Below, piece after piece: positions 1,260 to 14,840 of a DNA stretch of 64,000 bases. The notes under the pieces are model-generated. The model saw nothing but the letters and a program-made list of their open reading frames with translations. It ran no database searches and was not told where the DNA came from. Source of the stretch: Candidatus Babeliales bacterium. Its GTDB lineage: Bacteria > Babelota > Babeliae > Babelales > JANWKD01. A program made the translations under genes and the position numbers. The stretch's first letter is position 1, and each line of letters opens with the position of its first letter. The stretch lies in NCBI GenBank assembly GCA_963701665.1, contig OY969622.1, positions 428,132-492,131 on the forward strand. The letters run 5' to 3'.

Positions 1260-1298
1260 ATACTTATATTGTAAAAGTCATGTAGCGCGACAAGCTCA

Positions 1299-9198: not shown

Positions 9199-10587
9199 TT
9201 GCGTTAATACGTGCGCGCATTTATATACATTCCCAGCTCCTTGAAATAAGATCAAATCATCTGGTGCAACGATTGCATCAAGATTTCGTTTCAATAATGA
9301 AAAATGTTCTTCATAAGGAACATAGGTAACTGAAAACCGTGGATGCCGTTTTTGAATCGCTTTTGCTAAATTATGCGCGGTAATTTCTGGCAGCGGTGAT
9401 TCACTCGCTGCATAAATATCAGTAATAATGAGATGATCAATGGGACTTTGAACGAGTGTATCGATAAAAAGATCCCACAAAGCGTACGTTCGCGTAAAGC
9501 GGTGAGGTTGAAAAACGACCGTAAGTTTTCCGGACGCGCGTTTGCGATGGAAGGCAACTTCGAGGGTATTCTTAATTTCTTCCGGATGATGCCCATAGTC
9601 GTTGAAAATCTCTGCACCTTTATAGATGCCATTAAAACTGAAACGGCGTTCAACACCTTTGAAATTTGCTAATGCTTGTTTGATATCGGCAAATGGAATT
9701 TCAAGTTCTAAGCATACTGCAAGCGCAGCAAGCGCATTCTGCACATTGTGATTACCCGGCATGGGAATCGTGAGCTTTCCGAGCATCTGTTGCTGATAAT
9801 ATACGCAGCAGGTGGATTGATGTGGCTCTAACACAACATTGTTTGCCCGTATATCGGCTGCTGCATCCAATCCGTATTTTACGATTTTTAAATGAGAGAG
9901 TGGTAATAGGGATCGTACATTTGCATTATCGATGCAGAGAAATGCTTTACCGTAAAAAGGAATGTTGTTGAGAAAGTGCTTAAAAGTATTTTTGATGTCA
10001 TCGACATCACGATACACATCAAGATGTTCAGGGCTAATATTAGTAACCACGGCAAGTGTTGCTTGCAAATGTACTAATGATTTGTCACTCTCATCTGCTT
10101 CAGCAACTAAAAAATCACCTGAACCAAATTGTGCATTGGTTGAAATAGTTTTTAAATGTCCGCCAATAATAACGGTCGGATCTTTTTTAGTTTCGATAAG
10201 AATATGTGAGATAAGTGATGTGGTTGTTGTTTTACCATGGCTGCCAGCGATCGCAATGCTATATTTTGTGCGCATAAGTTCAGCTAACATCAATGCGCGC
10301 GGAATGGTAGGGATGGCACGCGCTTGTGCCGCACGTATTTCAGGGTTGTGCGCGTGAATGGCTGAAGAATATACCACAATATCGATGCTTTCATCATGGC
10401 AAGAAGGGGTATTGTTTCCTTCATAAATTGCGCATCCAAGATTTTTTAAATCATGAATACTTTTTTGATCGAGATCAATATCGCATCCTGAAATGGTATA
10501 GCCTTGATAGCGCAGAATTTTTGCAATGCCGCTCATGCCAATGCCGCCGATACCAACAAAATGAAGATGCACTTTTTTTCTATACAT
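9187..10587 (-). CDS. murC: UDP-N-acetylmuramate--L-alanine ligase
   Basis: FVGIGGIGMSGIA, AGSHGKTTTT, EADESD, DYGHHPEEI, VFQPHRFTRT. Confidence 0.97.
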   Translation of the reverse strand: MYRKKVHLHFVGIGGIGMSGIAKILRYQGYTISGCDIDLDQKSIHDLKNLGCAIYEGNNTPSCHDESIDIVVYSSAIHAHNPEIRAAQARAIPTIPRALMLAELMRTKYSIAIAGSHGKTTTTSLISHILIETKKDPTVIIGGHLKTISTNAQFGSGDFLVAEADESDKSLVHLQATLAVVTNISPEHLDVYRDVDDIKNTFKHFLNNIPFYGKAFLCIDNANVRSLLPLSHLKIVKYGLDAAADIRANNVVLEPHQSTCCVYYQQQMLGKLTIPMPGNHNVQNALAALAVCLELEIPFADIKQALANFKGVERRFSFNGIYKGAEIFNDYGHHPEEIKNTLEVAFHRKRASGKLTVVFQPHRFTRTYALWDLFIDTLVQSPIDHLIITDIYAASESPLPEITAHNLAKAIQKRHPRFSVTYVPYEEHFSLLKRNLDAIVAPDDLILFQGAGNVYKCAHVLTQQKK

Positions 10588-10739
10588 ACATGATTCCCAA
10601 TTTTTATTTACAGATTAGTTGTTATAAAATAACAAAAATGTTTCTGTTCTACAAACTGACAACAATACTATAGAGGTTGATTAGCTGAGAGAATCCATAG
10701 AAATATCCAGTGCGCATGGAAATATGCTTAGGGAAATGT

Positions 10740-10829
10740 TGTCATTCTGAGACAACGAAGTTGTCGTAGGAATCCAATCTGATAAGGATTTTCATTTTAA
10801 AGACTGGATCCCTACGTCGCTATGCTCCT
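10740..10829. repeat. REP-like doublet whose second arm is split by IS110 (remainder at 12029-12038)
   Basis: tgtcattctgag-acaacgaagttgt-cgtaggaatcca ... tggatccctacgtcgctatgctcCT|[IS]|caggatgaca restores a normal arm. Confidence 0.92.
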
Positions 10830-10843
10830 TGTATGTTAAAACA

Positions 10844-11050
10844 AAAAGCATTTAAGAGTAAATTGTGATAATTTAAGAATGAAATATTGTTTAATATCGG
10901 TTGTTTGAGAAAAGCTGATAGATCTCGTCACGCTCCTGGTTTAGAAGAACCGTTCCTGAGTTTGAGACTATCAGCTTACACAAAATTACCTCGAACAATC
11001 ACTAGAGACGTATTAGGTATACGATCTCGTATGTTTACAAGGCTGAGGTA
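10844..11050 (+). ncRNA. Predicted IS110 bridge RNA (target- and donor-binding loops); 5' end approximate
   Basis: TBL stem aagctgatag(10912-21)/ctatcagctt(10968-77) with guides acgctcct and tcctgag; DBL stem tacctc(10987-92)/gaggta(11045-50) with guides acaatcact and tacaag. Confidence 0.88.
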
Positions 11051-11053
11051 TTT

Positions 11054-11995
11054 ATGAAAAACATAGCAGAAGTATATGTAGGTGTCGATATTTCAAAAAA
11101 TAATCTCGATATTTATGTGTATCCTATAGGAAAATTCTTTAAAGTAGCTAACTCAGAAGTTGGCATACAGAACATAATCAAGGAATTAGCTCACTATCAA
11201 GTTACACAAATTGCCTGTGAAGCAACAGGTGGCTATGAACAATTACTTGCCCAATTACTCAAAAAGAACCGATATTCACTTTGGATCGTTGATCCACGAA
11301 GGATAAAAGCTTTTATTATAGCTACTGGCTGTAAAAGTAAAACCGATAAAATTGATGCTAAAAAAATTGCTGAATTCGCTTCTAAAAATTCTCCTAGTTA
11401 CGAGATTGTTAACAAAAGTGAGAATCAGCATAAACTACAAGCTCTAGTTAACCGTAAAAATGATTTAGTAAAATTTTTAGCTGCTGAGAAAACACGACTT
11501 AAACATCCTTCTCACGTATTATATGTTCCTGATATAAAAAGATTTATTGCACTCTTAGAAAGTGAAATTAAATCAATTGAGTCTCGAATACAGGATTTAG
11601 TCAAAGATGATGAAGAGTTACATACAAAATCAAACATTTTGGAATCAATCCCAGGAATCGGTAAAGCTACAGCTGCAACATTACTTTCTTTTGTCCCTGA
11701 GCTTGGGCAGTTAAGCGACAAAAAAATATCCGCTCTAATTGGTGTCTGTCCTTATGACAATGAAAGCGGCAATTACAAAGGCAAAAAATTTATTAAGCAT
11801 GGCAGGCATATTCCTCGTAAAGCACTTTATATGTGTGCATTGACCACGGTAAAGCACCATCTTCCTTTAAGGGAATTTTACCAGCGATTAATGGATGCTA
11901 AAAAACCTTTTAAAGTAGCTATCGTTGCTATTATGCATAAGCTCATTATAATTGCCAATGCTCTATTAAAAAGGGGCGAGTTATGTAGAGCTTGA
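11054..11995 (+). CDS. IS110-family DEDD recombinase/transposase
   Basis: RuvC-like GVDISK, CEATG, KTDKID; C-terminal SIPGIG, GVCPYDNESG (putative catalytic Ser), AIMHKL. Confidence 0.97.
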   Translation: MKNIAEVYVGVDISKNNLDIYVYPIGKFFKVANSEVGIQNIIKELAHYQVTQIACEATGGYEQLLAQLLKKNRYSLWIVDPRRIKAFIIATGCKSKTDKIDAKKIAEFASKNSPSYEIVNKSENQHKLQALVNRKNDLVKFLAAEKTRLKHPSHVLYVPDIKRFIALLESEIKSIESRIQDLVKDDEELHTKSNILESIPGIGKATAATLLSFVPELGQLSDKKISALIGVCPYDNESGNYKGKKFIKHGRHIPRKALYMCALTTVKHHLPLREFYQRLMDAKKPFKVAIVAIMHKLIIIANALLKRGELCRA

Positions 11996-12007
11996 CTATA
12001 AAAATAT

Positions 12008-12013
12008 TTGACT
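12008..12013 (+). promoter_or_regulatory. -35 box (TTGACT) of the IS110 circle-junction promoter; -10 TATGTT at 10832-10837
   Basis: In the joined ends the two hexamers are 17 nt apart. Confidence 0.75.
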
Positions 12014-12098
12014 TTTAACACAATCACTCAGGATGACATCCACCAGTTTAAAATGTTACTTTGCTAATGCTTATGCTCACTATGGGCAGATACATTAC

Positions 12099-12455
12099 TT
12101 ACAGTAATTCGCGTATTTTTAATAATTTTTGTCGGAGTTCAATAAGTTGTTCAACGGATACTGAAAGCACGTTTGTTTGGTTTGACTCCATCGTAGTTTT
12201 TGAAGCGAACAAAGCGTGATTTTTTCCCAATTTTAATGCCTCTTTTGCACCCGCTATGGTAAACTTTTTTTCATAGAGAAGTTCTTTAATCTTACTGAAC
12301 GTTTTTAGATCTTTTTCTTGATAGAAGCGCTGGCCACCTTCTGAGCGCGAAGAATGTACATTGAATTCTTTCTCCCAGAAGCGAATTACAAAGCGTTCAA
12401 CGTTGAGGTGTTGTGCAAGTTCTCCAATACGAAATTGTCGTTTGTTCATTTTCAT
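12099..12455 (-). CDS. MerR-family transcriptional regulator
   Basis: FRIGELAQHLNVERFVIRFWEKEF, GGQRFY; start reassigned to ATG 12455. Confidence 0.9.
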   Translation of the reverse strand: MKMNKRQFRIGELAQHLNVERFVIRFWEKEFNVHSSRSEGGQRFYQEKDLKTFSKIKELLYEKKFTIAGAKEALKLGKNHALFASKTTMESNQTNVLSVSVEQLIELRQKLLKIRELL

Positions 12456-12617
12456 AAATACTCTTCCTTTTTTAAAAGACCTTGTTTTTTTATATAGCTC
12501 AAAATTTAAGTTTTGTATATAAAGATCATCCTTTTGCACTGGATCAAACAGGGAATCTTTGCTATTCTAACTATACTTTGTTTTTCATCCCCGCTATTTT
12601 CACTCATAAGGATTTAT

Positions 12618-14135
12618 ATGAATATTAGAGAATTGTTGATTGTGTTACCTTTGGCGATTTTGACGAGTTTGGGGATACAATACTTCTTTGGTATACGCAA
12701 GGAAGTCCCAACAATTCAGGAAGATCAAAGACCCCTCAATCTCAATGTTACGTTTGTTGAGAAAAAAAATCCTAAAAAACCGGTTATTACTGAGTTTGAA
12801 ACAGAGCATGCGCGGTATAAATTCTCCACTGAAGGTGCATCACTTGAAAATGTAGAATTTAAGCGCAATTGGGGTGGTAAAGAAGGGTATCTGACAACTA
12901 TCTTCCCGCCGGATGCTGAGAACAAGGCTGATCGAGCATTTTTTGTTGCATTGCCGGATGCTACGCCCTATTATTTCGATCTCGTTGATAAACAAGTATT
13001 TGATGATCGCATTGAAATTTCGTACAGCGCAGCATTTAATGATGGGATAATGCGCAAAAAGTTCGTCGTATACAAAAATCTTTTCAAAATAGATCTTATT
13101 ATTTCTCTAGAGCCAAAAAACGCTAACGGCACTCAGTTACGCATGTTCTTACCTGCGCCTATTGTGCCGGAATTGAGAAGCAAAGATATTCTTAAAGGCC
13201 TAGCTGGCGATGCGAATGATACCATCACGAGTGTTGCAATCACCGATGCGAGTGCAAAATCGTGGCGTACGCCGACACTATTTGGCGCTCAAGATCGTTA
13301 TTTTGTACATGCGTGTGTGGCTGATGAGAACAATTTTATTGATCGAGGGTATTTCAATGTTGTTGATGAGCACCATCTTTTTGCGATTTTAGAAAGTCCA
13401 GAAGTGCGTGAACCCTCAACATGGACACTTTCATTTTATGTAGGGCCTAAAGAAGATGAAGCACTCGTTGCTGTAGACCCTCGTTTAGAACAAACGCTCA
13501 ACTACGGTTGGTTTGGGAGAATCTCTCGTCCTGTTTCAAAAATATTATTGCACATTTTAAAACGTATCTATGACTATTGTCATAATTATGGCATTGCCAT
13601 TATTATTTTGACCTTCTTGATGAAAATTATATTGTTTCCTTTTACGTATAAAAGTGAGCAAGGCCTTAAGAAAGGCATGGAATATCAAAAGAAGATGGAG
13701 CATTTGCAGCACAAATACAAGCATGATAAAGAAGGGTTGCGCATTGCACAAGCAGAATTAATTCGAAAGCATGGTATCCCAGGTATTGGCAGTTGTTTGC
13801 CTATGCTGTTATTACAAATGCCGCTTTTTATAGCATTAGGCTGGGTTATTTCTAACTCGATTGAATTATTTATGGCACCGTTTTTATGGATCCACGATTT
13901 ATCAACGCCTGATCCTTACTATATTTTGCCCGTATTGATTCTACTATCGATGATGTTTCATACACCAACTGCTGGTGCAGCGAACGATCCAAAGAAGCGC
14001 GTTTCAACATTTGCGACTGCATTACTTTTTGCCGCATTTGCGACTACCGTTTCTGCTGGGTTAGGTTTGTATCTTTTTACAAGCACAGCGTTGGGAGTAG
14101 CCCAAGCACAGCTAACAAAGAGATTCTTTTCATGA
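12618..14135 (+). CDS. yidC: Membrane protein insertase YidC
   Basis: FYVGPK, NYGWFG, NYGIAIIILT, GSCLPMLL, FLWIHDLSTPDPYYILP; start ATG 12618. Confidence 0.95.
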   Translation: MNIRELLIVLPLAILTSLGIQYFFGIRKEVPTIQEDQRPLNLNVTFVEKKNPKKPVITEFETEHARYKFSTEGASLENVEFKRNWGGKEGYLTTIFPPDAENKADRAFFVALPDATPYYFDLVDKQVFDDRIEISYSAAFNDGIMRKKFVVYKNLFKIDLIISLEPKNANGTQLRMFLPAPIVPELRSKDILKGLAGDANDTITSVAITDASAKSWRTPTLFGAQDRYFVHACVADENNFIDRGYFNVVDEHHLFAILESPEVREPSTWTLSFYVGPKEDEALVAVDPRLEQTLNYGWFGRISRPVSKILLHILKRIYDYCHNYGIAIIILTFLMKIILFPFTYKSEQGLKKGMEYQKKMEHLQHKYKHDKEGLRIAQAELIRKHGIPGIGSCLPMLLLQMPLFIALGWVISNSIELFMAPFLWIHDLSTPDPYYILPVLILLSMMFHTPTAGAANDPKKRVSTFATALLFAAFATTVSAGLGLYLFTSTALGVAQAQLTKRFFS

Positions 14136-14731: not shown

Positions 14732-14840
14732 TGTCTTCCCGAGGAGCGAAGCGACGTGGGGATCCAGAACTTTAATAAATCCTTAAGGAATTAATTTTAT
14801 AATCTGGGTTGCCACGCCACATACGTGGCTCGCAATGACA
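14732..14840. repeat. REP-like doublet directly after recR
   Basis: tgtcttcccgag-gagcgaagcga-cgtggggatcca, linker, tgggttgccacg-ccacatacgtgg-ctcgcaatgaca. Confidence 0.9.

Follow-up and report, generated by a model that had tools for sequence, protein, structure and literature searches.

Three identical copies of an IS110-group insertion sequence at one position of a hairpin repeat in a Babeliales genome, and the putative bridge RNA whose target loop matches their flanks

The window analysed here is a stretch of 64,000 nucleotides from Candidatus Babeliales bacterium (GenBank assembly GCA_963701665.1, contig OY969622.1, positions 428,132 to 492,131), the genome of which is a single contig of 1,337,192 bp with 37.3% G+C. 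On its forward strand, at 10830-12028, the window carries an IS110-group insertion sequence (IS) of 1199 bp, one of three identical copies. CT both precedes the element and ends it, which leaves the position of the boundary ambiguous by 2 nt (10828-12026 is equally valid). The sole open reading frame (ORF) noted for the element (11054-11995, forward strand) encodes a recombinase of 313 amino acids (aa) with a DEDD RuvC-like domain and a Transposase_20 domain: PF01548 covers residues 9-150 (E = 8.9e-22; score 78 bits, cut-off 29) and PF02371 (Transposase_20) covers residues 194-277 in the C-terminal part (E = 1.1e-17). The stretch ...nESGny... of the recombinase is aligned to ...yESGss... of ISCro4, and its conserved serine is the residue that we take to be the catalytic serine. 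Over its full length the protein aligns with solved bridge recombinases, namely those of ISCro4 (9t56; E = 3.3e-37) and IS621 (8wt6; E = 1.5e-35); these matches, together with both Pfam domains, bear out the IS110 membership proposed in an earlier reading made from the letters of the window alone (hereafter the sequence-only reading). Among the species-representative genomes scanned, the nearest relative of the transposase outside the genus has at most 59% aa identity.

The non-coding ends of the element are of unequal length – 224 nt on the left (10830-11053) and 33 nt on the right (11996-12028) – and this is the asymmetry of the IS110 group, in which the left non-coding end is longer than the right and holds the non-coding RNA (PMC11208160; here and below, papers are cited from excerpts). 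CT stands at both junctions in all three copies, as expected of the scarless, short-core insertion, lacking long terminal inverted repeats, that characterizes the group. Taken with the evidence from copies, guides and siblings given below, these features make it very probable that the element is an autonomous IS110-group IS that chooses its landing site by means of a bridge RNA.

The landing site is a host repeat. Its unit is about 100 nt long and consists of two hairpin arms that are inverted copies of each other, each arm having the form tGTCAT-xyz-GAG-(inner stem-loop)-CGTrG-x'y'z'-ATCC. The triplet of the outer stem varies among arms (TGC, CCC, CCT, CAC) and, in the examples read, the other side of the stem carries compensating changes. 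With a strict pattern, 187 arms are found genome-wide, against 4 in a backwards-read control; 63 convergent (inverted) pairs have a median span of 103 nt, and 14 intact arms lie inside the window. At the locus of the element, arm 1 of the unit occupies 10740-10775 (forward strand; tGTCATTCTGAG-GACAAC/GTTGTC stem-CGTAGGAATCC) and has near-identical arms at eight other places in the genome. Comparison of flanks shows arm 2 to be in two parts: the left part (GGATCCCTACGTCGCTATGCTC plus the core CT), which constitutes the left target, lies at 10806-10829, and the right part (CAGGATGACA), the right target, at 12029-12038, both on the forward strand. The arm type that is split has the inner stem GGAGC-nnn-GCGAC, and the insertion falls precisely where its inner stem meets its outer stem. 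A 24-nt pattern for this arm type (up to one mismatch allowed) occurs 27 times in the genome and not once in the backwards control; elsewhere it occurs three times in a congeneric genome (G001), and nine times and once in two genomes of the same family (controls 0).

A blastn search of the whole genome with 10830-12028 returned three full-length matches, each 100% identical over 1199 nt: copy A (genome 198284-199482, minus strand), copy B, which is the window copy (438961-440159, plus strand), and copy C (528785-529983, plus strand). A fourth match is a relative, D, with 72.7% nt identity. The junctions of copy B read ...ggatccctacgtcgctatgctcCT ^ tgtatgtt...aatcaCT ^ caggatgaca (^ marks a junction here and below). 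In element orientation the flanks of A and B are …ggatccctacgtcgcTATGCTC-CT ^ IS ^ CAGGATGACA, with ...TATGCTC next to the core CT, and those of C are …ggatccccacgtcgcTTCGCTC-CT ^ IS ^ CGGGATGACA, with ...TTCGCTC in the same place. All three copies thus share the same base and the same orientation relative to the arm (…CGTCGC-nnn-GCTC-CT^C(A/G)GGATGAC). The sequence-only reading had predicted that every copy would be found at (A/T)(C/T)GCTC-CT-C(A/G)G in a fixed orientation, and the genome search finds this in three of three copies, two of which that reading had not seen.

This regularity bears on the possibility that insertion is random and that only those insertions survive selection that fall in harmless intergenic repeats. 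The genome is dense – ORFs of at least 150 aa make up 82.5% of it – and most random insertions would be harmful. Nevertheless, some 17% of the 1.34 Mb lies outside such long ORFs, and selection can produce neither the same nucleotide and orientation in three of three copies nor the covariation of guides and flanks described below. Random insertion followed by selection is, on this evidence, scarcely credible.

Excised forms of the three copies were computed by script and aligned to intact units elsewhere in the genome. The excised forms of A and B are colinear, without gaps across the joint, with six intact units each (the best with 96% identity over 100 nt, at 267626-267726), and for excised C the joint is spanned by 30 intact units (the best with 95.5% over 88 nt). 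That excision of 10830-12028 restores a repeat arm, as had been claimed, is confirmed by this ungapped alignment across the joint to intact paralogues. In G001, of the same genus, the whole repeat unit is missing along with the IS from the murC–merR spacer, which is the locus of copy B (L099), and the whole unit is missing from the locus of copy C as well (L122); the reconstruction therefore draws on paralogues only. Considered together with the number of targeted arms (three in G001 against 27 here), the absence of the unit from these two spacers indicates that the repeat family has expanded or turned over since the species split.

An alternative is that the three copies reflect one insertion event, and were spread by homologous recombination or gene conversion or by movement of an IS-bearing unit as a whole. 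A and B do belong to one repeat subfamily, and their flanks are identical for 41 nt on the left and 10 nt on the right. However, 2 of 90 left-flank bases differ between the A and B units (our own count in the flanks) and their right flanks diverge after 10 nt, while the IS copies are identical over all 1199 nt, a difference that makes the insertions more recent than the repeat units. The unit of C has a different partner arm from that shared by A and B, and different hairpin-loop and right-target bases, and the element of the congener likewise sits at another repeat (one motif holds four copies, whose outer flanks differ). A, B and C look like separate insertions rather than a duplication, and spread from a single event is highly improbable.

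A consensus fold was obtained from the left ends of six siblings: the window element, D, the element of the congener, two relatives of 59% aa identity and one of 45%. It comprises two stem / internal-loop / hairpin modules, in which 12 of 31 pairs are kept through two-sided changes; judged by sequence and comparative fold, the left end appears to specify a two-loop bridge RNA with a target loop and a donor loop. The putative target-binding module (10912-10977, forward strand) has a stem at 10912-10927 / 10961-10977 and a hairpin at 10938-10951, with the guides in the internal loop: the left target guide, CACGCUCCU, on the 5' side (10929-10937) and the right target guide, UUCCUGAG (reverse complement CTCAGGAA), on the 3' side (10953-10960). 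These are the strings that had earlier been read as guides, and their position on opposite sides of the first internal loop of the conserved two-loop fold agrees with that reading. In all three copies the left guide agrees with the left flank at 7 of 9 positions, among them the six proximal ones (6/6); the three distal bases of the 9-nt guide do not fit the used sites as the proximal six do. The right guide, over the core plus four bases, matches A and B at 6/6 and C at 5/6, the single difference being a G:U. The putative donor-binding module (10988-11049, forward strand) contains a left donor guide, ACAAUCACU (10995-11003), a hairpin (11004-11029) and a right donor guide, UACAAG (11036-11041). 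The final 9 nt of the element (12020-12028) recur exactly in the left donor guide, and the right donor guide is complementary to CT plus TGTA at the left end. A 56-aa ORF at 10887-11057 (forward strand) covers the entire region of the bridge RNA and is most likely spurious.

A candidate promoter, TTGACT-N17-TATGTT, which by its letters matches the consensus, arises only across the computed circle junction of right and left ends. The -35 half, TTGACT, lies in the 33-nt right end (12008-12013) and the -10 half, TATGTT, at 10832-10837, both on the forward strand. Matching halves are found in the ends of D, of the G001 element and of the siblings at loci L019 and L020, and the variant TTGATT/TATGAT in that at L021 (our own reading). 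A consensus promoter scan of the integrated copy gave seven sites, against 5.5 ± 2.7 expected, none of them upstream of the RNA on the plus strand.

If the target loop specifies the landing site, then siblings with different loops should have different flanks. The donor loop is nearly invariant among siblings, as are the element ends, and the target loop varies with the flanks. Sibling D lies outside the window (1182 bp; genome 534758-535939, plus strand; locus L017:1437-2618) and has an intact ORF of 313 aa, 216 of 315 residues being identical to the window recombinase (69% aa). Its guides are UUGUCGCGCU / GGUAG and its insertion site is TTGTCGCGCT^ACAGGA, a left match of 10/10. The target of D is a different repeat module, with at least eight unoccupied near-copies in the genome; one of these (TTGTCGCGCTACATGA) lies within the window at 1278-1293 (minus strand). 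The congener G001 harbors five copies of an element of 78% nt identity, with guides GUCAAGCU / CAUAG; four of the five, with differing outer flanks, are at GGCAAGCT^ATGGCGG and the fifth is at GCCTTTGCT^ATGATGG. A module related to the long insert that is nested in some arms (described below), …AAGCT^TCGCC / GGCAAGCT^ATGGCGG, is the target of the G001 IS and of many siblings from metagenomes; it seems that several siblings exploit distinct modules within a single composite repeat system.

When metagenome contigs were searched with the stems of the scaffold, 16 further loci came to light, and the full set of 27 scaffold loci, after removal of five in which an end or a flank was missing, provided 22 sites with 16 guide sets. 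Compared with its own flank, a guide matches on average at 11.8 of 15 positions; for the 330 cross pairs the mean is 8.2 of 15, and 3.3% of these reach the median of own pairs (a smaller first version of the comparison gave 12.3 vs 8.3). Per-position concordance, anchored at the core and based on 18 distinct pairs, is 0.94, 0.89, 0.83 and 0.67 on the left and 0.5 or less further out; on the right it is 0.78-0.94 over five bases and then about 0.1. Judging from these values, the split of the guide in this clade seems to be approximately 4-5 + CT + 5. Changes in the guides track changes in the flanks across siblings.

The same series speaks to the possibility that the recombinase recognizes the DNA hairpin of the arm directly, through protein or structure, the similarity of loop and target being irrelevant or secondary. 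Targets in the clade are often palindromic: 17 of 19 reconstructed targets pair left with right flank across the core in the minimum-energy fold, and for ISPpu10 a target stem-loop is described as adding specificity (10.64898/2026.03.19.712850, a preprint). The fold energies of the reconstructed targets are, on the other hand, not unusual (z mostly -2 to +1 in a quick fold test with weak z scores), and siblings that share the protein and RNA scaffold have inserted into sequences that differ and that follow their own loops. Because sibling flanks follow their own loop sequences, direct recognition of a hairpin cannot explain the covariation, though structure may help; as the basis of targeting we hold it to be very unlikely, and favor guidance by the bridge RNA.

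Under guidance by the RNA, the sites open to the element in this genome can be enumerated. The 12-mer implied by the guides, CGCTCCTCAGGA, corresponds to the junction of inner and outer stems in one arm type. It has five exact sites, all repeat-borne and all empty, and 19 unused sites with one mismatch, 16 of them repeat-borne. In total, 24 unused sites are within one mismatch (21 repeat-borne), or 24 of 27 repeat-borne when the three occupied sites are included. Since repeats hold 24 of the 27 sites, the guide alone suffices to explain why three of three insertions are in repeats; and since the 12-mer lies in a high-copy intergenic repeat, good sites are almost all repeat arms outside genes. 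Base composition would predict about 1.0 occurrence of the string GCTCCTCRGG; the genome has 23. Repeat-borne GCTCCTC(A/G)G sites lie outside ORFs of at least 150 aa in 29 of 30 cases, and four of the five other sites are inside ORFs. The claim that the repeat offers many intergenic landing sites is upheld by the 21 repeat-borne sites among the 24 unused and by the position of the 29 core sites outside long ORFs. An earlier guide model, with a 15-mer / 13-mer, gave no perfect site and, at three mismatches, 72 of 84 sites outside repeats; it was replaced by the 12-mer after the per-position analysis.

Three of the empty sites are in the window and had been named in the sequence-only reading; read directly, all are real. 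Two are in intact arms on the minus strand: 887-900 (TACGCTC-CT-CAGAA; read as tacgctcctcagaa) has one mismatch to the 12-mer, and 14736-14750 (TTCGCTC-CT-CGGGAA; read as ttcgctcctcgggaa), which is also of the one-mismatch class, has the same 12-mer as the site of copy C. The third, at 1241-1254 on the forward strand (TTCGCTT-CT-CAGAA; read as ttcgcttctcagaa), is weaker, with T for C adjoining the core. Arms with the inner stem ggctttagcc or ggcgttagcc do match poorly, as had been noted: they are without GCTCCT and none is among the sites within one mismatch. The further suggestion that the target loop has adapted to the repeat stands in so far as the targeted arm type is common here (27) and rare (3) in the congener, which is without this element; adaptation as such is an evolutionary reading of that difference.

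Several observations weigh against targeting by the RNA. The used sites are not the best matches, each having one mismatch to the 12-mer (T for C at -5 in A and B; a G:U in C), and relative to a 9-nt left guide in the style of IS621 there are two distal mismatches at each used site; IS621 itself is described as strongly preferring perfect matches (PMC11208160). That perfect sites are empty and one-mismatch sites used may be chance, with three events, or something else may matter, for example the bases of the hairpin loop or a DNA structure of the kind described for ISPpu10. Off-target insertion does occur, given that one of the five G001 copies sits at the poorly matching left flank GCCTTTGCT. 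In the comparison of own and cross pairs the best register was chosen for the left guide, though for both kinds of pair alike, and anchoring inflates the per-position values near the core. A search of Rfam (E up to 1) gave no match in window positions 10000-13000. Lastly, no joint that skips the element, no circle junction and no empty allele at this locus was seen in the contigs of four metagenome runs, in which at most 21% of the sampled words were covered.

The same metagenome contigs include one intact paralogous arm (…gctcct^catgatgaca), and another contig spans the left junction; an exact 30-nt pattern for the left end had no match in metagenome contigs. Short contigs identical to parts of the element (window 10400-12400; runs X1, X2, X5 and X6) come from soil, estuary and freshwater metagenomes of three studies. 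At this low coverage, either the organism or else the element is widespread in the environment.

The cycle that we propose is modeled on work on IS621 (PMC11208160), and we infer transcription, circle formation and pairing from that model. The element would excise as a circle, and its joined right and left ends would create the sigma-70-type promoter TTGACT-N17-TATGTT. This promoter would drive an RNA of about 200 nt (a length estimated from the position of the promoter) from the 224-nt left end. Through its first internal loop this RNA would pair with the host target – the left guide reading the bottom strand of ...CGCTC-CT and the right guide the top strand of CT-CAGGA – and through its second with the element's own joined ends, that is, with the donor. 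The DEDD/serine recombinase would then swap strands at the CT core.

In 2003, Choi reportedly described IS110-family elements inserted in repetitive palindromes. Such insertion has long been known (Tobes and Pareja 2006, PMC1525189), and the RNA-guided basis of IS110 targeting, including that of repetitive extragenic palindromes (REPs), has been published since 2024 (PMC11208160). The best comparison is afforded by IS621 of E. coli (PMC11208160; PDB 8wt6). IS621 is described as having a left target guide of 9 nt and a right one of 4 nt, an 11-bp target, a promoter rebuilt across the core, and REPs as natural targets. The window element resembles it in its two-domain recombinase, long left and short right end, CT core, two-loop RNA with left and right target and donor guides, promoter rebuilt at the junction, and repetitive extragenic palindrome as target. 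It differs in the target, which for IS621 is ATCAGGCCTAC in enterobacterial REPs and here is another sequence in another repeat family; in the split of the guide, 7+2+2 in IS621 and apparently about 4-5 + 2 + 5 in the clade of the window element; and in the host, a small-genome Babeliales bacterium in which the element is known here from sequence alone. With ISPpu9 and ISPpu10 of Pseudomonas putida and other REP-recognizing IS110 elements (PMC1525189; PMC12288879; 10.64898/2026.03.19.712850) it shares, as far as these excerpts describe them, several copies that are all in REP-type repeats at a fixed position, many empty repeat targets that are nearly all intergenic and often in convergent pairs, and a left target that overlaps the 3' half of a short stem-loop (here GTCGC-nnn-GCTCC); the repeat family and the phylum are different. 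In a limited literature search no printed account of the window element was found, though the natural-target tables of PMC11208160 might list relatives.

The repeat itself had been called REP-like. Its shape agrees with that of REPs, of bacterial interspersed mosaic elements (BIMEs) and of REP doublets forming hairpins (REPINs), the arms being imperfect palindromes of about 30 nt, present in high copy (187), extragenic and organized in inverted pairs (63). It departs from them in its conserved end, which is tGTCAT and not GTAG, and in that no single-copy REP-associated tyrosine transposase (RAYT) was seen: a scan of the genome with PF01797 gave seven matches, all from a 571-bp IS200-like element with five intact copies and one broken, and the association with a RAYT that marks REPs and REPINs is therefore lacking. 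The term stands for shape, copy number and location, and, because there is no single-copy RAYT, is used here as a description of shape and not of membership. Another class of repeat, the MITEs, is defined by terminal inverted repeats, a target-site duplication and a cognate transposase; of the present repeat, the two arms are inverted copies of each other.

The six copies of the IS200-like element (Y1 transposase, 144 aa) are at genome positions 1252945-1254647, 79,7xx-80,3xx, 216022-216592 and 53044-53611 (loci L001-L007); three are arrayed head to tail, one about every 566 nt, and two TAA stops disrupt one of the six. The hairpin at the right end of the IS200-like element (ccacggcttttaagccgtg) is similar to the inner portion (ccacggct...agcc) of one type of arm, and tgtcat occurs near the left hairpin; this element might be the mover of the hairpin repeats. 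About 25 nt past the end of the arm (…gatgaca-cctctgtttaaaatgttaatttt) are common to copies of the subfamily (genome 517560-517760 and the right flanks of A and B), and the mobile repeat unit may be longer than the two arms. Some arms contain a long nested insert (…gagccgtcctacttcgccaaggcttcgcaggatcc…), for example those at 29960, 47698, 145804, 992757 and 1197284, and at locus L016 in G001.

What is added here is a new element, a repeat family and a lineage that are different, and a series of siblings with target loops that point to different repeat modules. The known mechanism is left unchanged; the known strategy of IS110 elements, landing in palindromes, is extended to a little-studied lineage with a small genome and to a repeat of different sequence. 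The siblings (at least three, of roughly 70-80% identity) form a compact natural series with the same scaffold and donor ends and different target loops, for which used and unused targets can be read from genomes. Such a series is useful for understanding how target loops get reprogrammed in nature, and informs the tolerance of mismatches, three one-mismatch sites being used and five perfect sites empty. A wider proposal, tentative and in our judgment rather doubtful, is that closely related bridge-RNA elements, found in two small genomes of one genus, have each changed nothing but the target loop, retuning it to a different module of one composite repeat – the arm junction, TTGTCGCGCT^ACAGGA, and GGCAAGCT^ATGGCGG nested in long arms – such that the repeats might serve as partitioned safe harbors, with turnover of guides following the abundance of modules in each host; the guide, unlike that of IS621, would be short on the left and long on the right, and the left target would occupy the 3' half of a DNA hairpin. 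If this were true, the clade with retuned loops would be a natural test case for structure-assisted targeting.

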